This document shows positions 1,815 through 27,558 of a stretch of 28,478 nucleotides of DNA, in pieces (the first letter of the stretch is position 1; each line of letters opens with the position of its first letter). The DNA lies in IMG/VR virus record IMGVR_UViG_3300030376_002381, positions 1 through 28,478 of that record. One strand, 5' to 3'. The position numbers and the translations under genes are program-made. The notes under the pieces are model-generated. The model searched no databases, was not told the DNA's origin, and saw nothing but the letters and a program-made list of their open reading frames with translations. The DNA comes from a virus. Lineage: Duplodnaviria; Caudoviricetes.

Positions 1815-2225
1815 TTAACCGCCTTTTGTTAGCTTATTAACTTTTTTCTTATACTTCTCTATCATCTCCTCATAATCTATCCTCATCATTTTTATAGTTT
1901 GTCTAGATAGCTCCTCTAATTCTTTTGCTGTGCCCTCCCCATACTTCTCATCTAATCTGAGACTATAAATATACTGATTACCGCTTAAATGTATATTACA
2001 TCTATAACACTGCGGCATAACATTACCTCTCTCATGCCATCTAGTTGCTAGTCTAGACCTAGACATAAAATGACCTGCATGGATGCCTATTTTATAATGA
2101 CTAACCTTATCGCATGTAAAACACTTTACATATCCATTAGCTGCATCTCTGAGTCTGATATATAAGCTAAAGATTTTATCTAATTCTTTTTTTAATTGAG
2201 ATATTGTTTTTTGTTTTTTAGCCAT
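1815..2225 (-). CDS. ninG: NinG/Rap-like recombination endonuclease
   Basis: FSLYIRLRD, CFTC, HAGHFMSR, TRWHERGNVMPQCYRCN: lambda NinG-type HNH/Zn signature. Confidence 0.85.
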   Translation of the reverse strand: MAKKQKTISQLKKELDKIFSLYIRLRDAANGYVKCFTCDKVSHYKIGIHAGHFMSRSRLATRWHERGNVMPQCYRCNIHLSGNQYIYSLRLDEKYGEGTAKELEELSRQTIKMMRIDYEEMIEKYKKKVNKLTKGG

Positions 2226-3290: not shown

Positions 3291-3680
3291 TTATTTAGTT
3301 ATATATTTAATTTGATTACCTATTAATTTTAATCCTGTGCCATTTTTAGACCTGTATTTAAGTCTTTTGTCTCTCCTCTCAGGCTCTTTACTCTCCTCTC
3401 TCCATATTAAGTCTCTATGTTTTTTAATCCAGGAGTAATAAGTCTGCACATTTAAGACAAATTTTACATCCTCTACATCTCGCACTCCATAACGAAAACT
3501 CATAATTACTGAATCCCAATCCATACTACCAAAACTCTCTAATAAGTCTGTAGCTAGACTCTTACTTAATACTACCTTAAAATCTGTATCCTTTTGCTGC
3601 CCTAATTCTACTAATGTAAGACTAATTAAATCTAAACATTTGAGGCATAAGTCTTTATATTCTATGTCTTTTATTTTCAT
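3291..3680 (-). CDS. Replication-associated hypothetical protein (possible helicase loader); start revised to ATG 3680
   Basis: Lies downstream of the initiator-like gene; ATG 3680 (MKIKDIEY) overlaps the TGA of the upstream micro-ORF as ATGA; function inferred from position only. Confidence 0.45.
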   Translation of the reverse strand: MKIKDIEYKDLCLKCLDLISLTLVELGQQKDTDFKVVLSKSLATDLLESFGSMDWDSVIMSFRYGVRDVEDVKFVLNVQTYYSWIKKHRDLIWREESKEPERRDKRLKYRSKNGTGLKLIGNQIKYITK

Positions 3681-7267: not shown

Positions 7268-7431
7268 TAATGAGTGCCGCCCTTTTTGGTATTATTAGGT
7301 ATTATCTTATTTAATAGCCATAAAATTTTACCTAAAATAGTATTATCTTTGTCTGTAGGAGTAATCCTTACTACTACCTCAAATACTGCTACCAATGCTA
7401 AGACAATTTCTTGCCATGATACATTATCCAT
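7267..7431 (-). CDS. Putative holin / small membrane protein, 54 aa
   Basis: MDNVSWQEIVLALVAVFEVVVRITPTDKDNTILGKILWLLNKIIPNNTKKGGTH*; hydrophobic helix, TPTxKD motif, next to the endolysin; TAATG overlap with the next gene. Confidence 0.65.
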   Translation of the reverse strand: MDNVSWQEIVLALVAVFEVVVRITPTDKDNTILGKILWLLNKIIPNNTKKGGTH

Positions 7432-7462
7432 TTTTATTTAGTTTTGATTAATAATTAATTGA

Positions 7463-7849
7463 TTATCTTTTGTAGTGCCAAATTACATTCTGCTGGCGTG
7501 TTTCTGATGTGTCGGCATGCAGAAAGTTGGACGCTATGCCAATGCGCGTAAATCCTGCTAATAATAAGCTATTTATAAGCATCCATCTATCTCTGCTACT
7601 ACCTACATGTAAATCAGCTGCAATACCCTCTGTATGCGGGCTGTTTTTTGCTACTCCTGTCTTATATCTCTCTGCTAATTCCTGCTGGTATGCCTCAGAC
7701 CTATATCCTGAATTTACCTTTATAGGCTTGCCGTATATATCTCTAGCCTCATCAAGCATGTCTATAAACTCATCAGACATAAACTCCTCTCCTGATCCCT
7801 CTAATCCAGGCTGGTCAAATTCTGAGTAAGTAAAATACTTAAATTTCAT
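7463..7849 (-). CDS. Endolysin, peptidase M15A family
   Basis: YFTYSEF, NSGYRS, SPHTEGIAAD (HxxxxxxD) and FLHAD zinc-peptidase motifs. Confidence 0.9.
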   Translation of the reverse strand: MKFKYFTYSEFDQPGLEGSGEEFMSDEFIDMLDEARDIYGKPIKVNSGYRSEAYQQELAERYKTGVAKNSPHTEGIAADLHVGSSRDRWMLINSLLLAGFTRIGIASNFLHADTSETRQQNVIWHYKR

Positions 7850-7935
7850 TTTTTTTTACATTCAGGTTTGCAGTGTCCTAGGCAAATAGTTTTACCTGTT
7901 ATGTAGTAAATTAAGTTACAAATAAATTTTATCAT
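7846..7935 (-). CDS. 29-aa cationic Cys-rich peptide in the lysis cassette
   Basis: MIKFICNLIYYITGKTICLGHCKPECKKK*; ATGA overlaps at both ends. Confidence 0.6.
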   Translation of the reverse strand: MIKFICNLIYYITGKTICLGHCKPECKKK

Positions 7936-8111
7936 TTCTTTTTATTTTTTTGGTAATGTGTATGCCATCTGTATATAGTATATCCTATAGTAGCTATAAG
8001 TAAAACAATTTTTAATATCATCTCTATATCAGCTAAGGTAGTAGCTGTAATTATACTGCTATTTATTACTAATACCTCTCCTATCTCCTGCTTTACTCTT
8101 TGTATTGGCAT
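7932..8111 (-). CDS. Putative holin / membrane protein, 59 aa
   Basis: MPIQRVKQEIGEVLVINSSIITATTLADIEMILKIVLLIATIGYTIYRWHTHYQKNKKK*; hydrophobic core and basic C-terminus, upstream of the endolysin. Confidence 0.65.
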   Translation of the reverse strand: MPIQRVKQEIGEVLVINSSIITATTLADIEMILKIVLLIATIGYTIYRWHTHYQKNKKK

Positions 8112-8178
8112 TTTTTATATATTTTTTTAAGGCTAATTCATTTTTAGCTTTTGGTTTGTATGTTTTTTGTTTATTCAT
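8059..8178 (-). CDS. Small basic hypothetical protein, 39 aa
   Basis: MNKQKTYKPKAKNELALKKYIKNANTKSKAGDRRGISNK*; TAATG coupling to the upstream gene; overlaps the next ORF by 53 nt. Confidence 0.45.
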   Translation of the reverse strand: MNKQKTYKPKAKNELALKKYIKNANTKSKAGDRRGISNK

Positions 8179-8747
8179 TAATCAGTTAAATCAGGAGTTA
8201 AAAAATCATCTATAGTCAATCCTCTTTTTTTCTCAGTTTGTATCTCTAAATTTAAGCCAGAGTAATATGCCGATTTTGAAGGGCTGAGGTCTGCCCCTGA
8301 TGCTGTGCTATATTCAGGAAAGCTAGCGGTATTATGCTTTAGATACCTAATCATCCTCTCCAAATAAAACTCAGCCGTATTAATGACCTCCTGTCTTAAA
8401 TCTTTATACTCCTCATTTGTTAATGCTTGTAAATTTTCTGATGTTTTTACACCTATACCATTATTAGATATTCTTACTCTCAAAAATGGTAGGCACTGAT
8501 AAAAAGCGAAATGCACCAAAGTATCCATAATATAGTCCTCTGTAAGCGTCTTATAAGCTCCTGTAAGAGAGCCTGCGGTAATTTTGGTCTGTAGAGCCTC
8601 AAATAGGTCTGTGCCTAGCTTAGGCTCAATATAAATACGCTGGCTGGTTTTTAGGTATGGCAAGATAAAATCCATATCCACTGCTCCTCCAATTGCTGTA
8701 GAGTTTTTTAGTTTCTCCTCACTTATAAATAATACATAATTTGCCAT
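8178..8747 (-). CDS. Putative head-tail adaptor (DUF6712-like)
   Basis: Directly follows the portal; LFISEEKLK...VD...PYLKTSQRIYIEPKLGTDLF...FPEY pattern of Bacteroidota phage structural proteins. Confidence 0.6.
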   Translation of the reverse strand: MANYVLFISEEKLKNSTAIGGAVDMDFILPYLKTSQRIYIEPKLGTDLFEALQTKITAGSLTGAYKTLTEDYIMDTLVHFAFYQCLPFLRVRISNNGIGVKTSENLQALTNEEYKDLRQEVINTAEFYLERMIRYLKHNTASFPEYSTASGADLSPSKSAYYSGLNLEIQTEKKRGLTIDDFLTPDLTD

Positions 8748-8753
8748 ACTTTA

Positions 8754-10763
8754 TTAATTTTTTCTCCCCTGATTAGGCATGTTTATAGGCGCTACTGATA
8801 CCTCCTGCGCATTCCTAGGTAATGATACACCTCTACTCTTTGCCTCAGTGCTAGATATTATATCATCTAAATTACTAGGCTTATCTCCTTTTTTAGTTAC
8901 ATATACTCTCCTATACCATGCATGATAGCAATTAACTCCTCCTTTCCATTTCCATAAACTATATTTGTCGCTACCACCAGGTCCAAATCCTGGATTTACT
9001 GCCTGAGTTCCCATCCTTATTATATCCTCTTTACGATATGCTTTGTTTGCAGCTTTCATAGCTTTACAAAAGTCTCTCTCTCCTCCTGGACCTGTATATA
9101 CATATCTTACTCTGTATAAATCATCTTTATAGTCTGTCTGTTTAGATGTCTGATCTTGACCTGACCTAGCACTAGGAAACGCTCTCCCTGAGCTTGCTAA
9201 TTCAATTCTAGTTAAATCATGTAGCTCATTCTCAAAATTAAAAGTATCATCCTCATCTACTACCTCAGTCTCTGAATATAACTCCCACTCATCCTCATTT
9301 AATTCCTCTCCTAAACTTATTAACTCTTGTAAATCTTTATTTACTACAGATAGTGTAATTGCTGAGTCATGATTTTCACATGGCATATAGTAGGTTTTAC
9401 CATCTTGTTTATGCGAATGCCAACCGGAACATCCTATCCTCTCAGCTTCTGCCTCTGCCTCCTCTATTGTATCAAATAATGGTAATTCTTTGCCATCTGT
9501 TATCATACTACCTACTTTCTTTAATTCCTCATTAGAGGTATCCTCAGACTCCTCTAATTCAGGTAAGCCAAGCTCCTGTCTTATCTCATTGGTAGTCATG
9601 ACGCTCCTCATGTCCTCAATAGTAAATTTATTAGTTACTGGCTTAGCCTGCACAAAACACAAAGGCAAATCAATATCATTAATTCTAAGTATTTTAGATA
9701 ATGTCTTTAATATCTGTTTTTGGTATCCTTTTACTACACTATTTAGGTATAAATCAAATGCCTCAGTCATCTCCTGAGCATTATTCCCTAATCCTCCTCC
9801 TGTATCTCTTATGCCTACTAATAATGGGGATGTAATTCTATGGGCTGTAAGTATGTTTTTTTGTATTAAATCCTGTAGAGCTAAATATTGCTTATCTGCA
9901 TTACTCATCTGTATAGGAGTTATTTGAGGAGTCCTGGTATTATCATCTGAAAATGTTAATATTACCTTACCTGCATTATTACTACCCTGAAATTTAGAGG
10001 ATAACGCTCTCTCTATCTCTACTCTCTCCCGCTCGGATGGTATGCCATTCGCCATAGAAACGAAATAAGTCCCCGAAAAATTATTTTGAACGTTTGCGAG
10101 ATGATACTCTGCAATTTCAGACTCTATTAAACACCAATTATTGCCCGCTAAGTAATCAGGTAAATAATACGCATCCATACCAGGGCTATAACTACCTGTA
10201 TATAATATCTGACTAGGGCTAGTCCTATTATTAGGATTAAATGCTGGCACAGGCACTGGCTCATTTTCTCTAGTATTAGTCCAATCAGCAGATACCCAAT
10301 AAGTATCTATCTTACCCATCTCATTAGGTTTCCCTACTCTTACCCTCTCCATGCTTACATGATGTATCTCTGAGATGGATTGTCTATCCTGGCTATATAT
10401 AATATTTAGACAATACCCTCCCTGTAGCTTAAAATCAAATGCGCATTTTCTTATAACTTCATGTAAAGACTCATTACCATTAGCATTTTTCATAAATTGT
10501 GCTAATTTAGACTCTGCCTCTACATTATCTGTATCCTCTATTATTATATCCTCTCCTGCTATCATCTCTGATGTAGCATTAATAATAGCTGCATTGCTAG
10601 AGCTTGAATAATATAGATCAATTAAAAAATTAGGATAAGTATTTATCCATCCCTCGCCACTATACTCTATCCAATCGCTAGACATTTTCTCTTTTATAGT
10701 AGGCGCTGTCTGAGCCTTAAAGTCTATATTTAATATTTGTTTTTTTGGTTTTTTAGTAGCCAT
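8754..10763 (-). CDS. Portal protein with C-terminal extension (Cys/His domains)
   Basis: YPNFLIDLYYSSSSNAAII, GGYCLNIIY, NNFSG...NGIP, GSNNAGK, ILTAHRITSPLLVGI, TNEIRQELGLPEL portal pattern in about the first 405 aa, then ~260 extra aa. Confidence 0.85.
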   Translation of the reverse strand: MATKKPKKQILNIDFKAQTAPTIKEKMSSDWIEYSGEGWINTYPNFLIDLYYSSSSNAAIINATSEMIAGEDIIIEDTDNVEAESKLAQFMKNANGNESLHEVIRKCAFDFKLQGGYCLNIIYSQDRQSISEIHHVSMERVRVGKPNEMGKIDTYWVSADWTNTRENEPVPVPAFNPNNRTSPSQILYTGSYSPGMDAYYLPDYLAGNNWCLIESEIAEYHLANVQNNFSGTYFVSMANGIPSERERVEIERALSSKFQGSNNAGKVILTFSDDNTRTPQITPIQMSNADKQYLALQDLIQKNILTAHRITSPLLVGIRDTGGGLGNNAQEMTEAFDLYLNSVVKGYQKQILKTLSKILRINDIDLPLCFVQAKPVTNKFTIEDMRSVMTTNEIRQELGLPELEESEDTSNEELKKVGSMITDGKELPLFDTIEEAEAEAERIGCSGWHSHKQDGKTYYMPCENHDSAITLSVVNKDLQELISLGEELNEDEWELYSETEVVDEDDTFNFENELHDLTRIELASSGRAFPSARSGQDQTSKQTDYKDDLYRVRYVYTGPGGERDFCKAMKAANKAYRKEDIIRMGTQAVNPGFGPGGSDKYSLWKWKGGVNCYHAWYRRVYVTKKGDKPSNLDDIISSTEAKSRGVSLPRNAQEVSVAPINMPNQGRKN

Positions 10764-10783: not shown

Positions 10784-11524
10784 TTATAATGCTGTAAGAT
10801 AATCTATTAATGCGTTTCTATCATCTGGAGATAAGCTATTATTACATATTACTATCTCTTTTATTCTAATAGTATTAGCTGGATCGCCTATTTTTTCAAT
10901 GTCTAAGGTATTAGTAATTACCTCTGTGCCATCTCCTGTGCCGCTTTGTGTTAATGATGTGCCATTTATAATTATAGATAATCTATCATCAGTAGTAGCT
11001 GCTGTATCATCTCTCTCATATCCTATTACATAAGGAGTATCAGCCTCTAATGCTTCTCCTATAGCAAAATCATGTCTAGCGCCTGATATTTTCATCCTAG
11101 CCTCTGTAGAGGATTGAATTTTTAGAAAATTTTGACCTGCCTCATCCTCAAATAAAAAATCTCCAAATGATGTATCATCAAATGCTACTCTCATATAAAA
11201 TGAGAAAGTGCCTAGAGATAAATGACTTGTGAAATCTAGCTGGTCTGCTCCATGGTCAAATACTACCTCTTTTGTAGTCTGATCCTGTTTAGGATGTGCT
11301 GTATTGTATGCACTTGTATTTGCTGGAGTAGTAGTATCTATTAAATGATTACTCCCCTTTTGGTCTGACCACTCAGTTACTACATGATTACCTGCGCCTG
11401 CTACAAAAAAAGTAGATATATCAGTATCATATTTATACCAATGTATTAAACTAGATATATCATTAGGAGTAAATCTAGATGATGCTACCTTACCTCTTAT
11501 TGTATTAGATAGTCCTAATTTCAT
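10784..11524 (-). CDS. Virion protein with LamG/concanavalin-A-like fold
   Basis: MKLGL start, WYKYD...VTEWSDQKGSNHL and IKEIVICNNSLS...LIDYL motifs typical of LamG-like phage proteins. Confidence 0.6.
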   Translation of the reverse strand: MKLGLSNTIRGKVASSRFTPNDISSLIHWYKYDTDISTFFVAGAGNHVVTEWSDQKGSNHLIDTTTPANTSAYNTAHPKQDQTTKEVVFDHGADQLDFTSHLSLGTFSFYMRVAFDDTSFGDFLFEDEAGQNFLKIQSSTEARMKISGARHDFAIGEALEADTPYVIGYERDDTAATTDDRLSIIINGTSLTQSGTGDGTEVITNTLDIEKIGDPANTIRIKEIVICNNSLSPDDRNALIDYLTAL

Positions 11525-11811
11525 TATAGAGTATCATTCTTATATACTAATGCTAATCCTGTGCCTGATAAGGTAATAGCCGTAAAAGACAAAAATAAAG
11601 TTGTGCCCGCCGCATAAGTTCTATGCAAATCTGCATCAGCTCCTGTAACTTGACTTGTAGTAGTAATAGCTGCTATAGTAGTCTCTACAGGAAAATGGAC
11701 CGCATAATATGTAACTCCTGTAACTGCTGCAATAGCGTCTGTATCCTCTATAATTGTAACTGCTCCCTTACCTAATTGCTCTGATAATAACTCTTGTGTT
11801 GTATCTCCCAT
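11524..11811 (-). CDS. Small beta-rich putative virion protein
   Basis: AGTTLF...FTAITLSGTG.ALVY pattern; inside the structural operon. Confidence 0.5.
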   Translation of the reverse strand: MGDTTQELLSEQLGKGAVTIIEDTDAIAAVTGVTYYAVHFPVETTIAAITTTSQVTGADADLHRTYAAGTTLFLSFTAITLSGTGLALVYKNDTL

Positions 11812-11826
11812 AATTTTTTAATTTTA

Positions 11827-12303
11827 TTAATCTGTATATAAATAATTTGTTGTTGCTGTTTCTGATGTTTCTGTATATATTACCTGCTCACTTCCTATTG
11901 TTTCCTGGATTTTCATTTTACCTCTATGCACTAATCCCTGCACTACTCCATTATTATTATTTACTGCTAATACTTCTGTCTCAGTTTCTGGCGCTGTAGA
12001 TGCTGTAAGAGTCATAGTGCCTATCCATGATACCTCATATATTTCATAGGTCCAAAATCCATAAGGCTTAAAATTTAATATACCATTATAAAGATTTTCA
12101 GTGCCACTATGAGCTATTGCAAATGTAATACTCCTATCTGTTTTTGCTGATAAATGGGGATAGCAGTATTTTATATCCTTAGTTGTATCATGTGTAAATT
12201 TAGCTAGGTATTTTATATTAGCCTGAGCTACTGCTGTATTAATTCTAGACTCCTCTACACTTATTTTAGCCTGTATAGTCTGTCCATAAATTCCATTTAT
12301 CAT
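11827..12303 (-). CDS. Putative virion structural protein
   Basis: 158-aa ORF directly after a late-promoter motif; GFWTYEIYE motif. Confidence 0.5.
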   Translation of the reverse strand: MINGIYGQTIQAKISVEESRINTAVAQANIKYLAKFTHDTTKDIKYCYPHLSAKTDRSITFAIAHSGTENLYNGILNFKPYGFWTYEIYEVSWIGTMTLTASTAPETETEVLAVNNNNGVVQGLVHRGKMKIQETIGSEQVIYTETSETATTNYLYTD

Positions 12304-12307
12304 ATAG

Positions 12308-12334
12308 TATAATAGAAATATTACCTATTTATTT
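12308..12334 (-). promoter_or_regulatory. Putative late promoter, copy 5
   Basis: AAATAA-ATAGGTAATATT-TCTATTATA, then CTAT ATG (12303). Confidence 0.75.
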
Positions 12335-12350
12335 TGGATTTTGTTAATAT

Positions 12351-12527
12351 CTAGAGCTTTCCTCCTATAATATCAGTCTTTTTAGTCTTTTTAGGCTTAG
12401 TAGATTTCTTAAAATATTTTTGTAATCCCTTTAATTCTACCTCATCTGACTTTACTAGATCAAGCCTAATTATACCTCCTTTTGTATGTAAATCTACTCC
12501 CTGATATTCTTTTTTTAATTTATACAT
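12351..12527 (-). CDS. Small basic hypothetical protein, 58 aa
   Basis: MYKLKKEYQGVDLHTKGGIIRLDLVKSDEVELKGLQKYFKKSTKPKKTKKTDIIGGKL*; A-rich leader; fills the gap between terminator and promoter. Confidence 0.6.
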   Translation of the reverse strand: MYKLKKEYQGVDLHTKGGIIRLDLVKSDEVELKGLQKYFKKSTKPKKTKKTDIIGGKL

Positions 12528-12549
12528 AATTGATATTTTTTAATGTTAT

Positions 12550-12576
12550 AAAAAAAGGAGGGCTAAATACCCTCCT
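12550..12576 (-). terminator. Intrinsic terminator after the capsid/tail-tube genes
   Basis: Minus strand AGGAGGG-TATTTAG-CCCTCCT stem-loop running into a 7-T tract. Confidence 0.85.
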
Positions 12577-12624
12577 AATTTTAACTTAAACTAAACTACG
12601 AAACACATATATAAAAATAGTATG

Positions 12625-14933: not shown

Positions 14934-14956
14934 GGTCTTTAATTATTTTTATATAG

Positions 14957-14983
14957 TATAATAGATTATTTTTTTACTTATTT
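14957..14983 (-). promoter_or_regulatory. Putative late promoter, copy 4
   Basis: AAATAA-GTAAAAAAATAA-TCTATTATA, 23 nt upstream of scaffold ATG 14933. Confidence 0.75.
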
Positions 14984-15621
14984 GATTTTGGTTGTATTTT
15001 TAGTATTTCTGCTAGAGTTTCTAATACCTGCTCATCAGTGTATTTTTGCTCAGATAATTTAGACATAGCATTTACAAAAAATCCTTCAATACTTAGCCCG
15101 GTAAGTTTCCCTGATTTTAACTCAGACCAGACCTCATCATTATTAATACGCATAGTTACCATCCATGTGCCTTTAGGTAGAGAAAATCCATAAAGATTAG
15201 ATTTGTCTTTTTTAGTATCCTCTATAATCCATGACTCCATTACATATACATCATCAATATCTCTCTCATGCTCATAGGTAGCCTTATGCTGGTTTTGATA
15301 TTTTAAGAACATCTCACTAGAGCGGCGTATGGTCGCTTCCGAAAAATAGACATAAAAATCCTTATCCTCATCTGCATTGTATCTATAAATTTGCTTATTA
15401 GGGATGAGGGCTGGAGATATTAATACTCTCTCCTCTTTTGTCTCTTTTGCTAATGTTAAATTATTTTTTTGTTTATTAAAAAACACTGCAGACTCTTGAA
15501 TGGCAGGCTCAGAGACTAAACTGATCGCATCAATCGCTAACGCCTCCTCTCCTGGCTTATCTGATATTACTAACTCTACAATATCAAAATATTTTTTCTT
15601 TTTTTTCTTTTTTGGTTTCAT
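14974..15621 (-). CDS. Prohead protease (XkdF-like putative serine protease)
   Basis: AISLVSEPAIQ, PALIPNKQIYR, YVYFS..TI, ESWII, PKGTWMV and KSGKLTGLSIEG motifs. Confidence 0.8.
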   Translation of the reverse strand: MKPKKKKKKKYFDIVELVISDKPGEEALAIDAISLVSEPAIQESAVFFNKQKNNLTLAKETKEERVLISPALIPNKQIYRYNADEDKDFYVYFSEATIRRSSEMFLKYQNQHKATYEHERDIDDVYVMESWIIEDTKKDKSNLYGFSLPKGTWMVTMRINNDEVWSELKSGKLTGLSIEGFFVNAMSKLSEQKYTDEQVLETLAEILKIQPKSNK

Positions 15622-15625
15622 ATCT

Positions 15626-15652
15626 TATAATAGATTTATTTATTATTTATTT
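15626..15652 (-). promoter_or_regulatory. Putative late promoter, copy 3
   Basis: AAATAA-ATAATAAATAAA-TCTATTATA, then AGAT ATG (15621). Confidence 0.75.
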
Positions 15653-17760
15653 TATATTGTGCTCCTCCTCCTAATATCAGCTAATTGAGCTTGACTATCA
15701 GTAAGCTCATCAGTTACTACAAATGTTTTTAATGCTGGCTGAGTTCCCTGCGGTCCTCCTCCTCCCTGTAATGTAAAGTTTCCTGATCTAGTAGGCGCGC
15801 TTACGCTTTTTGGTTGATCAGGAGGGGATGCTCCACCTCCTGCTCCTAATGCAGACTTAGCCTTTTTTACAGCTCCTATTACTGCTGCTATTTGTGTAGC
15901 GTAAAATATAGGAAACGCTAAGGCTGCTCCTGGACCTGTAGCCTTTGCAGATTTTTGTGCAATATCTAATCCCTGTATAAATCCTAATCCTGTATTTATT
16001 GCTATTTCTGCTAGTGCTGCCGCTTTACTTGCTTTACTACCCTCCTCAAATAATCCACTAATCTCTCCCATTGCTCCTCCTACAGCATTTACAAAGGCAT
16101 TTTGTGCCTCTATTTTAGCGTCTCTTAATTCGTTTGTTTTTTCTAAGTCCTCAGCATCATGAGTTTCTCTTATTTCTTTTAATTTTAGTAGTTTAAGTCT
16201 CTCTAATTCCTCTGTAGCCATACCTAACTCTAGAGCTTGCTCTATTTTTTTATCAAATTCTCTCTCTGCATCTATTAACTCCATCTCTCTTACTCCTGTC
16301 TGAAAATCTAAAATCTCCTGGATTTTGTCTTGCTTCTCTTGCGCAAATCTCTCCTCTATTTTTGCTATAGCGTCCTCTCTATCTTTTACTAATTGCTCAG
16401 ACTTCATACCAAAATGCTCAGCCTCTGCTATTAAGGCATCATATTTACGCTGCACTGCTAATATTTCTTTTTGCTCTGCAGTCAAATGAGCCTCCTCCAT
16501 AGTAGTCTGCATCTCTTGTAAAAACTTCTCTAATCTTTGCTGCTCTTTTTCTCTGTTTTGAGCTGCTTGCTGAGATTTTTTATCATTAGCTGCATCATCT
16601 ATTGCTATTATTTCTAATTCAAATCCTGCCCGCTTCTCTTTTAATTTATTTAATCCCTTATCCATTTGCTCTAATTCTGCATTTATCTCTGCCTCTGTCT
16701 CTGCTGCATCAAATCCTAGCAAATTAGCTCCAAATGATGTAAAATCATCAGTTAAATTTGTAGCATCCATTACACCTACTTTTGATAATCCAAAAGTAAC
16801 TGCATCAATAGTTGCTAATAATGTAGTAATAGGTAACATTAAAAATCCTATTATTCCCTGTGCTATCATCTCGTTTCTTTGTGCTGCTTTTATTTGAGAT
16901 TTTGCTGTAGATTTTTGCCTTTCTATCTCTACCTCAGACGCTTGTATTGCGGCGTCTATATCTTTTAGCTTAATCTGTAGTATCTCTCTCTGACTTTTGC
17001 CCTGTAATTTTAATTGATTTGTGCTTCCCTCAGTTGCTTCTAAGTTCTCTATAGCGGCGTCCTTTGCTGCTGTAGCAGACTCTAGCTGTTCTCTCATCTC
17101 TGCTGATACTCCTGATGCTAGACCTTTTATATCATCCCAATAAGCTACTAGAGTGCCTATAGCTATTACAATCAATCCAATACCTGTAGAGGCTATAGCT
17201 ATTTTTAATGTTTTCATACCCTTAGCAGATACCTTAGCTGATAATCCTATAGCCCTTAAGCCGTTTCTATATAATACAGCTGCTGATGCTGCCATCTTAT
17301 GTAGTTTTATACCTGCCTTAGTTTGTGCTATTGCTACCTTTTCTAATACTATACGCTTTGCAGTAGTCAAATGTAGAGACGCCTCAGCCATCATCCTTAC
17401 TCCCATTGCTATAGCTATAGCTCCCTGCACTTTTGCCTGTAATTTTTCTAAATTTTCACTCTCTACACCTAATAGAGTCATAGCTCCCTGAGCCGCTACA
17501 AATCCTCCTGCAATTCCCTCTGCAGTTTTTAGAAAACTCTCAGCAGTCTGAGCAGAGTCTAATCCCTCCATTTGTCTTGTAAGATTTTTTATCTTACTCT
17601 CTGTCTTTTGTATGTTATCTGCTAGCCTCTTAAAATCATCTGATCCTAATGTAGCGTCCTCTATAGCATTTTTAAGGAATCCTAGACTCTCTATTAATCC
17701 TCCTAAAGTATTTTGCGCCTTTTGCGCTCTCATTTCTATCTCTACTACACTTTTTGCCAT
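15652..17760 (-). CDS. Tail tape measure protein
   Basis: 702 aa, Ala/Glu/Lys-rich coiled coil with hydrophobic stretches (STGIGLIVIAIGTLVAYW; ALAFPIFYATQIAAVIGAV). Confidence 0.8.
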   Translation of the reverse strand: MAKSVVEIEMRAQKAQNTLGGLIESLGFLKNAIEDATLGSDDFKRLADNIQKTESKIKNLTRQMEGLDSAQTAESFLKTAEGIAGGFVAAQGAMTLLGVESENLEKLQAKVQGAIAIAMGVRMMAEASLHLTTAKRIVLEKVAIAQTKAGIKLHKMAASAAVLYRNGLRAIGLSAKVSAKGMKTLKIAIASTGIGLIVIAIGTLVAYWDDIKGLASGVSAEMREQLESATAAKDAAIENLEATEGSTNQLKLQGKSQREILQIKLKDIDAAIQASEVEIERQKSTAKSQIKAAQRNEMIAQGIIGFLMLPITTLLATIDAVTFGLSKVGVMDATNLTDDFTSFGANLLGFDAAETEAEINAELEQMDKGLNKLKEKRAGFELEIIAIDDAANDKKSQQAAQNREKEQQRLEKFLQEMQTTMEEAHLTAEQKEILAVQRKYDALIAEAEHFGMKSEQLVKDREDAIAKIEERFAQEKQDKIQEILDFQTGVREMELIDAEREFDKKIEQALELGMATEELERLKLLKLKEIRETHDAEDLEKTNELRDAKIEAQNAFVNAVGGAMGEISGLFEEGSKASKAAALAEIAINTGLGFIQGLDIAQKSAKATGPGAALAFPIFYATQIAAVIGAVKKAKSALGAGGGASPPDQPKSVSAPTRSGNFTLQGGGGPQGTQPALKTFVVTDELTDSQAQLADIRRRSTI

Positions 17761-23917: not shown

Positions 23918-24274
23918 TTATTTTTTATTTTTATCAATTTGTTTTAATTTACTTATAGCCCAATTTATACCACTGCTACCTCCCCAGGCATCCCACATTA
24001 GACCTCCGCATCCCTCAGTATATGGCACATCTTTATTTTGCTGATGCCTCTTAAATGATGCCATGCGGGCAATCGTATCTCTTGAAATATTTTCACGCCT
24101 TGCTAACTGCCCTGCGCGCGTCCATCCTATACGACTTCCACAAGAGCTACCATTTTCTTTTTTATATTTAATAGCTCTTTTTGCATTATTAGTAGCAGAC
24201 TGAGGATAGTCATTATAAGACTCTAGACTAATACTAATCTCCTCTAATTTTTCTAATATTTCATCATAAGTCAT
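23918..24274 (-). CDS. Conserved-looking phage protein with WDAWGG motif
   Basis: SYNDYP...NAKRA...CGS..GW.RA.QLA...TIARMASF.RH...CGGLMWDAWGG..G..WA..KL. Confidence 0.6.
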   Translation of the reverse strand: MTYDEILEKLEEISISLESYNDYPQSATNNAKRAIKYKKENGSSCGSRIGWTRAGQLARRENISRDTIARMASFKRHQQNKDVPYTEGCGGLMWDAWGGSSGINWAISKLKQIDKNKK

Positions 24275-24815: not shown

Positions 24816-25591
24816 TTAATTATTTTCTCTATTTACTGACTTATCATTATTTACATCTAATTGATATGCCATATATGTAAAACATTCTAAAGCTGGTATC
24901 TTTGTAATCTCATCTAATTTATCTACCTTACCATCTGCTAGTCTGTAGATAGTTTCATACCATCCCCATTTTTTCTGAATAGCGCTAGCCTCTCCCTCAT
25001 CGTCTCTGCCTTCAAATATACTGCCATAGTTTCTAAGAGTTGCGCCCCTAAAGCGTAAAAAAAAACGCTAGCACCATTAATGTCCTCTACTTTTAGATTA
25101 TCTCTAAATAGGTTTGCCCTATCCTGGGAGGGCTGATAATCCTCTATTATATACTTATCTCCATCCTCCTCTATAATTGGTCTATATAATATAGATAATA
25201 ATGTATGTAAATTTTCATACATACCCTCCCTAATACACATCTCTATATCTACAAACTCTCCTAAACTTACATTTTTTAATTTAGGATGGAATCCATATTT
25301 TTTACCTTTTATATTTAATATATGTTTTAATTCCTGATTAGGCTCTGATTTTAACATGTCTTTCATTACCTCGTTTATTTGTGTTAAATCAGGTATAGTC
25401 ATATTCCATAAATCCTGCTCAGGTATATCTGTAAGATGATGTATCATCATTACTAATCTAGTATGGTCTGTAGTTTTTTCGTTAGTCAAATAAGTCATTA
25501 CAGACATATATTTATCTAATGGTAGCTCATTCCATGTATCAGGCATGCTATACCATTTTGAGTCCTTACCTTTTTTTAGTTTTATTTGCAT
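24816..25591 (-). CDS. -1 frameshifted long form (~258 aa) of the putative tail assembly chaperone (G-T-like)
   Basis: T9 run at 25065-25057; the -1 frame is open for ~80 codons (LRFRGATLRNYGSIFEGRDDEGEASAIQKKWGWYETIYRLADGKVDKLDEITKIPALECFTYMAYQLDVNNDKSVNRENN*) and stops 1 nt before ATG 24814. Confidence 0.7.
24938..25591 (-). CDS. Putative tail assembly chaperone, zero-frame form (217 aa)
   Basis: PDTWNEL.L..Y, YGFHPKL..VSLGEFVDIE and LSILYRPI motifs; contains the slippery GTT TTT TTT. Confidence 0.6.
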   Translation of the reverse strand: MQIKLKKGKDSKWYSMPDTWNELPLDKYMSVMTYLTNEKTTDHTRLVMMIHHLTDIPEQDLWNMTIPDLTQINEVMKDMLKSEPNQELKHILNIKGKKYGFHPKLKNVSLGEFVDIEMCIREGMYENLHTLLSILYRPIIEEDGDKYIIEDYQPSQDRANLFRDNLKVEDINGASVFFYALGAQLLETMAVYLKAETMRERLALFRKNGDGMKLSTD

Positions 25592-25597
25592 ATATAT

Positions 25598-25624
25598 TAT
25601 AATAGAAAAATTAATAATTTAGTT
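25598..25624 (-). promoter_or_regulatory. Putative late promoter, copy 2
   Basis: AACTAA-ATTATTAATTTT-TCTATTATA, then ATATAT ATG (25591). Confidence 0.75.
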
Positions 25625-25634
25625 TAGAATTGTA

Positions 25635-26954
25635 TTAATAGACATAATACCTACCATAATTAGCGTCTATAGCAAAGTAAAATCTCATCATTATTGCATC
25701 AGCATAATCTGGCGATCTACCTATAATATCCTTTATTTTAGGCTTAGGTATTATTTGTAGCTTAGCATCCTTATCTATATTGTAACTTCTGACTTGCTCT
25801 AATTCCTGTATTATGTTATTTTTTGCTTTTATATCATTTGTAGATATACCTACTTTGCCCTTATTTATATAATCAGACATATAGTAATAGCATTGAGTTT
25901 TAAGGTTTTGGTAATTTTCTTTATTTAGACATTTACTACCATTGATAAATCCCCTACATCCAGGTATCATATCTACCACGCCGCTACCGATACCATCCTC
26001 ATCAATAACTATATTTCTAGTATATACATCATTCTCTCTCTGTAATTCTTTTATAGTATTAGCTACCTCAGTCAAAGATGATTTATGTATAGTAATTATC
26101 TTATCTATATGCATGCCAGTCCATAGACAGATGATGGTCTTATCCTCTCCATATCTTGATATATCTGCTGATATATACCTATCTCCCTCCATCCCTTTAA
26201 TCTCAAATAATGATATTATATTATCATAATGTATTAGTCCATCCTTTGTAGCATCATACTCCCAATTACCATACAATAGTCTCTGCTTACTTATCTCATC
26301 TAATGACTCTAGATTAGTCTTATAATGTTTAGATATATACTCATTATCATCTACTAGACTTTGTATAAATACCCTATTAGGTTTTATTGTGCCCTCCTTT
26401 GCTGGCTTATAGTAATTAGAGTATAGCCATCCTTTACTAGGATTACAGGTAAGTAATAGAGTGGGAGTGAGTTTATTCTCATCTAGCTTATATCTAAGTC
26501 TAGACATTAATACCATCTTAGCTCTCTCTGTTATTTGATTAGCCTCATCTAAAAATGCAGAGGTTAGCTCATAACTACCCAAAGAATCAAAATTGCGGTC
26601 TGATGGATAGGCGAACATGTCTTTAAGTATTATCTCAGATTTATTAAAAAAGGTAATTACATTTGACTGAGCATTATAATTATAGTGTTTCTTACTCTCT
26701 ATACCCCATAATTTACATACCTCAAAAAATGTATTTAATGTAGTTTTTTTAAGTGAGTCTAATTTAGACCTACCCATTAGATGTCTAGTCTCAGGATATT
26801 TTAAGCACATCATCAGTAAAAATGCCGATCCTAAAAATGACTTTCCTCCCCCCGCACTTCCGCCATAGAGTATCTCATTAGTATTAGTATCAAATAAATA
26901 CTTTAATGCTTTCTTTTGTTTATGTGTAAATGATGGCTTAATATTCAATGCCAT
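25635..26954 (-). CDS. terL: Terminase large subunit
   Basis: Walker A YGGSAGGGKS, Walker B AFLDEANQ, TCNP coupling motif, RNase H-like DISRYGED and SPDYADA. Confidence 0.95.
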   Translation of the reverse strand: MALNIKPSFTHKQKKALKYLFDTNTNEILYGGSAGGGKSFLGSAFLLMMCLKYPETRHLMGRSKLDSLKKTTLNTFFEVCKLWGIESKKHYNYNAQSNVITFFNKSEIILKDMFAYPSDRNFDSLGSYELTSAFLDEANQITERAKMVLMSRLRYKLDENKLTPTLLLTCNPSKGWLYSNYYKPAKEGTIKPNRVFIQSLVDDNEYISKHYKTNLESLDEISKQRLLYGNWEYDATKDGLIHYDNIISLFEIKGMEGDRYISADISRYGEDKTIICLWTGMHIDKIITIHKSSLTEVANTIKELQRENDVYTRNIVIDEDGIGSGVVDMIPGCRGFINGSKCLNKENYQNLKTQCYYYMSDYINKGKVGISTNDIKAKNNIIQELEQVRSYNIDKDAKLQIIPKPKIKDIIGRSPDYADAIMMRFYFAIDANYGRYYVY

Positions 26955-27297
26955 CTATATTAATATCTATCTTTATAGGCTCATCCTTACTACTTATATC
27001 AAGCTCTGACCTCTCTATATACCCTCTCTGCTTACCTCTACATTTTAGATAAAATATAGTAGCTGAGGTATTACCATCTGCTATCTGTCTATGTAATGAT
27101 GTCTCTACAAAATCTAATGCTAAATTATTAATATCATCTACCTGGTCCTTAAAGTCCTTATCCTCTTTAAGCCATTTATAATATGTAGCTCTAGGTATGT
27201 CTGCTGCCTTACATGCTGCACTAACTACTCCCAGGCTATTTTCTAGAGCCGCTAACATGCTCTCCTTTTTTATGTGCCTACTTTTGTCTATACTCAT
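26938..27297 (-). CDS. terS: Terminase small subunit
   Basis: HTH (GVVSAACKAADIPRATYYKW), ATIFYLKCRGKQRGY.ER; directly upstream of terL. Confidence 0.8.
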   Translation of the reverse strand: MSIDKSRHIKKESMLAALENSLGVVSAACKAADIPRATYYKWLKEDKDFKDQVDDINNLALDFVETSLHRQIADGNTSATIFYLKCRGKQRGYIERSELDISSKDEPIKIDINIDGIEY

Positions 27298-27301
27298 ATA
27301 T

Positions 27302-27328
27302 TATAATAGAATTTTTTACGTTTTATTT
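27302..27328 (-). promoter_or_regulatory. Putative late promoter, copy 1
   Basis: AAATAA-AACGTAAAAAAT-TCTATTATA, then ATAT ATG (27297). Confidence 0.75.
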
Positions 27329-27558
27329 TTTAGGTCCTCAGGAGTTGGTAATAATATATCTAATTCTGTCTGACTCCATATCCTTATCTGCTCTATATAG
27401 TCATTAAATTCTCTCCTATCCATTGTCTTAGTATCCTCTATCATAAACTCCCTTTTTAGTAGATCATGTATTTCATGGGGATAATAGCCTAACTCACTGC
27501 TAAGGATTTTTACTATACACTTCCAATAATAATTATTTTGTTTATGGCTTCTCTGCAT
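27316..27558 (-). CDS. NinB-like protein
   Basis: RSHKQNNYYW, EIHDLLK, TKTM...EFNDYIEQI..W...LP motifs. Confidence 0.65.
   Translation of the reverse strand: MQRSHKQNNYYWKCIVKILSSELGYYPHEIHDLLKREFMIEDTKTMDRREFNDYIEQIRIWSQTELDILLPTPEDLKNKT

Follow-up and report, generated by a model that had tools for sequence, protein, structure and literature searches.

Recurrent short allele replacements at conserved protein motifs in an AT-rich phage genome and its relatives

Why should a phage genome that is poor in CG carry short blocks of rare, CG-containing codons on conserved protein motifs? The question is raised by a patch in the portal gene of the window, by which we mean the whole stretch of DNA analysed, an entire phage contig of 28.5 kb with 33% GC and a genome-wide CG observed/expected ratio of 0.33. 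Its annotated genes (portal, TerL, TerS, protease, endolysin, methyltransferase and NinG, and also NinB) all lie on the minus strand. The nearest deposited portal is that of the Nonlabens phages P12024S/L (35%), and 11 of 21 TerL relatives found in bacterial genome records carry Bacteroidota names, so the host is likely a member of the marine Bacteroidota. A sequence-only reading had singled out six patches and proposed that they were recoded synonymously during repeated escape from sequence-guided immunity, with recombined micro-tracts or translational pausing as alternatives. The patch sequence and CG counts it gave were reproduced, namely 7 CG in 10030–10100 (the focal patch), 5 in 7496–7548, 4 in 15321–15341 and 7 in 24061–24135; the two remaining patches contain 3 (26820–26865) and 2 (9410–9430).

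The comparison rests mainly on a sister genome (the contig of L002, L160 and L187), which is 92–96% (about 94%) identical to the window. The features considered are as follows, all on the minus strand.

8754–10763, minus strand: portal gene, with family-wide burst and rare-codon peaks at approximately codons 217–251 and 287–332.
10029–10100, minus strand: focal patch, portal codons 222–245; 13 codons differ from the sister synonymously and 1 non-synonymously, and it is the window that has the rare codons.
10023–10049, minus strand: 3' third of the focal patch with some adjoining sequence; all 27 nt, two rare codons among them, agree with the relative L004, whose portal is about 78% alike.
9303–9512, minus strand: DUF3721/GWHSH region of the portal, containing tracts in which amino acids change toward those of distant relatives.
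7499–7549, minus strand: endolysin (peptidase M15) patch; 9 synonymous and 3 non-synonymous differences from the sister, donor not found.
15307–15354, minus strand: head protease patch; common to the sister (15/16 codons) and partly to L082, an older event.
24038–24145, minus strand: WDAWGG-protein tract; matches the distant phage L170 at 78/93 nt (84%) and the sister at 69/93 (74%).
26814–26870, minus strand: TerL Walker A tract; 9 synonymous and 2 non-synonymous differences from the sister, mostly as in L161 (70/75 nt), with several alleles in the clade.
26577–26639, minus strand: second TerL tract; 11 synonymous and 0 non-synonymous differences, rare codons common to L164.
26698–26789, minus strand: 92-nt run identical to L163 and L164, which are 74–82% alike overall.
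11527–11763, minus strand: clearly imported stretch of the 11524–11811 gene; codons 16–95 show 82% identity with L013, compared with 62% for the sister.
1815–2225, minus strand: NinG/Rap junction endonuclease, an accessory gene of recombination.
27316–27558, minus strand: NinB/Orf recombination mediator.

The focal patch differs from the sister at 17 of 71 nt, compared with 3 mismatches in each of the adjoining 150-nt stretches, and the sister has no CG there and uses common codons. Since the outgroups mostly side with the sister in portal codons 222–238, the window's version is the derived one in that part, and 10 of the 13 synonymous codons are changed at the third position. An assembly chimera was considered as well. 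The patch is present with 0 differences in contigs of four runs (one of these contigs being 2004 nt long), and therefore is not a one-off assembly error, although the runs represent two samples of one study that may itself be the source of the window; runs X5 and X6, a small share, had no cover of the site and were left out. A further genome, L080, is 99.98% identical to the window, and other genomes show the same pattern, leaving a chimera with a negligible probability. In run X2 there is a second allele of the site with shared flanks and 30 differences, which when read by hand is sister-like in codons 234–253 and L082-like in codons 218–231 (39/42 nt). At least two events have probably been stitched together in the focal patch. 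A diversity-generating retroelement was considered and rejected, as 8 of the 17 changed bases are A on the coding strand and the longest self-match is 10–12 nt; no reverse transcriptase is found among the window's annotated genes.

The use of common codons by the sister at the same place also bears on the idea that the rare codons are functional, i.e. that they serve RNA structure, translational pausing or selection for accuracy. In keeping with it, C-ending codons are slightly more frequent in conserved windows across the family (GC3 0.220 vs 0.198), but the sister's codons refute it for the focal patch unless the two alleles differ in fitness, and folding superior to that of GC-matched synonymous controls was seen in 0/11 rare alleles (lowest P 0.073). 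We regard functional codons as very unlikely, and the pausing or RNA-structure alternative of the sequence-only reading is not upheld.

The clustering of rare codons was assessed by shuffling synonymous codons within each amino acid (1000 shuffles, 25-codon windows). The best window scores 32.5 bits of rarity against 19.2 ± 2.3 in shuffled genomes, a value reached in 0/1000 shuffles, and there are six peaks of at least 20 bits where shuffles give 0.45; the four top windows are the endolysin, portal, protease and WDAWGG patches. The claimed clustering therefore holds for rare codons but is marginal for CG alone (maximum 7, P 0.077), which we do not accept as a signal in itself; two windows contain 7 CG compared to 0.12 expected from codon shuffles. 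Neither the Walker A nor the GWHSH patch is supported as a rare-codon outlier (z 1.5 and 2.7, respectively). The rare-codon score climbs with protein conservation (rho 0.21, 479 windows), and does so too in clade lineages that have patches of their own.

Four of the six patches first named prove to be synonymous bursts relative to the sister. Besides the focal patch these are the endolysin patch (14/53 mismatches, 3 and 1 in the 150-nt flanks), the WDAWGG patch (21/75, flanks 8 and 4) and the Walker A patch (12/46, flanks 4 and 4). The protease patch has 1/21 mismatches and is thus shared with the sister, and the GWHSH patch (8/21, flanks 14 and 21) lies inside a wider divergent stretch. Genome-wide we found 54 divergent tracts between window and sister, with a median length of 45 nt and covering 1287 of 8583 aligned codons, within which 52% of codons differ compared to 7.5% outside. 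The rarer allele may be on either side, window or sister. Switches between the two serine codon boxes account for 15/30 serine changes within tracts and 2/27 outside, and multi-step synonymous changes make up 30/375 within and 8/380 outside. Burst windows in this pair are commonest in the top quartile of protein conservation (0.13 vs 0.01–0.09).

The same feature recurs across the family. Using disjoint close pairs in place of a tree-aware model, we identified 36 synonymous bursts among 24 independent portal pairs, of which six pairs have bursts at codons 220–251, the focal motif, and eight at codons 287–332; the two regions are also the family's rare-codon peaks. Conservation at portal bursts averages 0.739 compared to 0.666, which was matched in 0 of 2000 placements. 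Bursts fall on conserved windows in the capsid (P 0.0005) and tail tube (P 0.029) genes as well, and the link is below significance in the TerL, protease, phosphoesterase, 8178–8747 and WDAWGG genes; the expected coincidence of peak synonymous divergence with greatest protein conservation is thus borne out in three of eight genes. At one window 11 of 104 portals reach z ≥ 3, and among loci outside the clade 21/67 have a best window at z > 3 (median rho 0.20). The patches vary among relatives rather than being identical in nucleotide sequence, so the outcome that the sequence-only reading had named as refuting its idea did not arise. They are a real and recurrent feature, consisting of short allele replacements at conserved motifs.

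We propose, with a probability of roughly 55%, that these are recombination hot spots on conserved motifs, at which short tracts come in from diverged co-infecting phages and are filtered by protein function and restriction. Tracts of 30–100 nt would replace stretches of conserved motifs, some of them from unsampled, G+C-richer donors. Conserved motifs would be the places where diverged phages can still pair, and imports that alter important residues or carry the host's restriction words would be lost, so that the survivors would resemble silent recoding, conspicuous against the strong word bias of the clade.

Micro-tracts of this kind, mentioned only as an alternative in the sequence-only reading, are seen directly at several sites; the tracts are sharp, the same motifs are hit repeatedly and short pieces are exchanged between lineages. 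Judged by its sequence, 11527–11763 is a clear import from an L013-like phage, as codons 1–15 of the same gene are 96% identical to the sister. Within the portal, 9468–9512 matches L021 at 91% identity, the sister at 58%. Donor-like matches come from one L013/L170 contig at two tracts of the window and from L021 at one, and in L088 a portal tract agrees with the distant L095 at 91/99 nt (92%) and with its own sister at 68/99. The rare codons that the second TerL tract shares with L164 imply that a rare allele has moved between lineages. Identical runs of at least 40 nt exceed the maximum of 200 shuffles for 5/6 relatives that are 74–82% alike; the signal lies in the count of runs, the longest run exceeding the shuffle maximum for only 1/6. 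Adjoining the import from the L013-like phage, the window has a 246-aa gene at 10784–11524 where the sister has an unalignable 236-aa ORF.

The substitution spectrum resembles that of old divergence. In 29 of the 189 bursts, those with rare codons, which base is derived does not depend on the ancestral base, and the four-fold ratio (AG+CT):(AC+GT) is 34:32 = 1.06, close to that of saturated pairs (1.10, P 0.90) and below the close-pair background (1.87, P 0.034). Imports simulated at 3% of codons with the donor codon usage of loci of at least 37.5% GC reproduce the top patches. Nine words are absent from the window (GTAC, GGCC, TCGA, ACNGT, GTNNAC, TGACA, TTTAAA, GATATC and CATATG). The 3.9 kb of tracts contain 0 restriction-type words, where 11–25 would be present if they came from typical relatives, which suggests that a restriction filter acts on imported tracts. 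The window encodes the recombination functions NinB and NinG, no annealase is recognised among its genes, and some relatives carry Rad52- or ERF-like genes.

Local hypermutation, in which error-prone repair acts where DNA is frequently cut or in heteroduplex and purifying selection then eliminates residue changes, would account for the retention of residues, the lack of donors and the flattening of codon use. It would, however, require roughly ten-fold higher rates within 70 nt and sharp edges, the serine-box switches would have to pass through non-synonymous steps, and no cutting agent was identified in scans for guide arrays, inteins/introns and nucleases; we consider it unlikely. Homing elements favour conserved motifs, and the patches might accordingly be recoded targets of intein, intron or free-standing homing endonucleases. 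Against this the patches are spread over many unlinked genes, and no insertion was found at the patch sites in loci matching the portal (202), TerL (127), endolysin (101), protease (79) or WDAWGG (99) proteins, duplicates included. HNH or GIY-YIG motifs occur in 2/141 accessory proteins scanned (136 representatives, drawn from the largest among 693 clusters, together with five motif candidates, and with 512 small clusters covered by motif only), both in a distant group with 51% TerL identity. With no occupied site and no free-standing nuclease gene near the targets among the scanned proteins of the family, we rejected homing as quite unlikely.

The recombination reading leaves a gap, in that sampled relatives do not explain the rarest patches. 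The collections searched yielded no donor for the endolysin and protease patches, nor for the focal patch over its 5' two-thirds. An exact search of viral contigs with part of the focal patch gave 0 matches; a peptide search with the focal motif gave seven loci, the close ones being sister contigs only; blastn against deposited phages gave no donor match; the degenerate endolysin motif gave 16 matches, the best at 33/51 nt; and a portal search of bacterial genomes gave no match. Among 46 candidates from 5.8 billion proteins the focal motif sequence occurs only in the 90% cluster to which the window belongs. Each of the 111 distant portal alleles differs from the sister allele by more than one residue (median 11), bearing in mind that burst detection itself favours few residue changes, and diagnostic sites in rare patches show 129 clade-type residues vs 20, a figure that is too high where a lineage has its patch in common with relatives. 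Imports simulated from the sampled AT-rich family gave the third-best patch score in 0/40 runs under each of three models, and a site-by-site quilt model fails for the focal patch (P 0.0016). The rarest patches, which sampled relatives cannot account for, thus call either for tracts from a relative that is richer in G+C, was not sampled and has proteins of the clade type, or for selection of uncommon alleles; the immunity idea of the sequence-only reading belongs to the second branch.

In its developed form that idea holds that a sequence-guided defence (CRISPR or similar) targets shared motifs, that the alleles most dissimilar to the common ones gain an advantage, and that rare-codon alleles arise in place over many rounds and are spread by recombination, which we treat as a tentative possibility. 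Equally tentative is the broader picture of a whole marine phage family with recoding hot spots under lasting sequence-guided defence, its alleles persisting as deep polymorphisms and traded in 30–100 nt pieces. Such a process could explain why independent lineages are hit at the same motifs, why lineage residues are retained and why donors are not found. Further points in its favour are that the same three rare codons recur in differing residue contexts in seven IMG/VR contigs, all AT-rich portals (GC 0.32–0.35), that within 16 codons L142 and L143 have 7 third-position differences against a background of 3%, and that avoidance of GAA/CAC is kept in patches (35 vs 36 in the clade and 49–53 in outsiders). 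According to Nasko et al. 2019 (PMC6401485), conserved marine viral genes such as terminase are over-targeted by spacers, a pressure on constrained genes that resembles the pattern here; that paper, PMC11307328 and 10.64898/2026.09.22.753571 describe retained spacers on conserved viral regions, and PMC13388668 describes escape variants in protospacers.

The divergence peak at conserved motifs, which this idea predicted, was found, but other observations speak against it. The spectrum is saturated rather than single-step, which many rounds of escape would also yield; the CRISPR cases just cited involve spacers and single variants, as opposed to the saturated block here. Family-wide codon heterozygosity is not raised in conserved windows (11/17 amino acids, P 0.64), and in the window–sister pair alone synonymous divergence is unrelated to conservation genome-wide (rho −0.02). 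A better fit of uniform codon use was discarded as evidence of in-place recoding, being partly a selection artefact, since the top windows of patch-free simulated genomes prefer the uniform model too; only the excess over this control was used. Likewise, kept GAA/CAC avoidance is weakened as proof of in-place origin, as the clearly foreign tract is clade-like in density as well (21 vs 42 per kb in L013). Spacers are also fewer in surface water, according to PMC6401485.

No spacer, array or guide was found. The spacer search, a weak test, covered 401 genomes from a single Flavobacteriaceae-labelled family, to which the host may not belong, with two candidates scored in each; it gave chance-level matches only, and no repeat array was present in its 30 best loci. 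GGYNN/VIPR or TIGR guide arrays numbered 0 in 386 loci (3.64 Mb, mostly partial genomes), and the window has no Rfam match or guide array. In the VIPR RNA-guided silencing system (10.64898/2026.10.15.759431), a comparable case, phage-borne guides are directed at the conserved coding motifs of competitors; VIPR skips the wobble base, so the third-position changes that predominate in the focal patch would not escape it.

Returning to recombination, the feature is a variant of known phage micro-mosaicism, what is new being its recurrence on the same conserved motifs with the protein left intact. Kupczok et al. 2018 (PMC5913663) report for lactococcal 936 phages 809 nt replaced in 5.1 events a year with 135 changes, or about 160 nt and 17% divergence per event, which similarly amounts to many short imports from co-infecting relatives. 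In those phages imports affect chiefly the early region, the late one being conserved, whereas here it is conserved motifs of structural genes that are hit; our tracts are also shorter (median as above), keep the protein and include some codon styles absent from sampled relatives. Relaxed (homeologous) recombination of the lambda Red/Rad52-like type allows exchange at up to 22% divergence with joints in identical blocks, according to PMC2327257 and PMC3945230; orf and rap contribute there, and both genes are present in the window. The mosaics described in those papers are at least 200 nt, unlike the tracts here, and the window is without a recognised annealase. The exact pattern was not found in the literature searched, where most subscription journals were outside reach.

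Short phage imports are known, but here the same conserved motifs are hit across independent lineages with the protein intact. The most conserved motifs are usually expected to be the safest DNA markers, an expectation that the finding inverts, with a bearing on primer design, marker phylogenies, dN/dS scans and spacer-based host prediction. If guide selection drives the pattern, synonymous hot spots would provide a readout of immune pressure in uncultured phage genomes, and under lasting guided defence they would show, without any data beyond the phage sequences, where unseen immune targeting falls.

The word bias against which the patches stand out is itself structured. In the window GAA/TTC is halved and GAG makes up 74% of glutamate codons. 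A deficit in GAA, AAC, AAG and CG marks a clade of 27 loci, all with GC3 of 0.18–0.23, while wholly absent words are a narrower trait, the full set being common only to the window and the sister lineage. In the 27 clade loci and the window, GAA/TTC, CAC/GTG, [GC]AA[GC] words and CG are depleted two- to ten-fold on both strands, and GAG, CATG and GCGC are enriched, with CCGG enriched 7.8-fold in L082. GAAC/GTTC is reminiscent of phosphorothioate sites, and TTC of a type I-C PAM. A similar word shift with CG near zero is present in L060, L070 and L119. At least nine restriction-type words are missing in the window and sister (L002, L160, L187) and common in relatives about 75–80% alike (L003, L164), and L082 and L161 lack subsets of them. 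Such rapid, lineage-specific purging of restriction-type words suggests that the host is heavily defended and that hosts have changed recently.

Near window position 3299–3317, clade members differ in accessory genes that the window lacks. These are a Dam-like methylase in the sister (L002:17394–17879), a TRM-like protein in L003 (17227–17973), L082 and L166, a PAPS-reductase-like protein in L165 (3419–4291) and L248, and two further ORFs in L163 (3411–5313). From the gene content, the site looks like a swappable DNA-modification slot. Two relatives (L319:1055–1807, L331:1008–1862) carry genes for a TET/JBP oxygenase and a TET-associated glycosyltransferase, likely a base-modification pair.

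Several further features were observed. At portal codons 472–483 (window approximately 9315–9350), adjoining the DUF3721 domain, 26 relatives have repeated in-frame insertions of 111–150 nt, probably through changes in repeat copy number. Seeming gaps at 7268–7462, 7850–8177 and 12304–12624 contain short reading frames of < 60 aa, one of which is hydrophobic, holin-like and adjoins the endolysin gene. A 29.8-kb contig with 62% TerL identity (L358), found inside a MAG labelled Arcobacteraceae, is likely a mis-binned phage. Finally, an AT-rich element is repeated in the window at 12300–12343, 14947–14990, 15618–15661, 25590–25633 and 27294–27337, directly upstream of structural and packaging genes, and is likely a late promoter.
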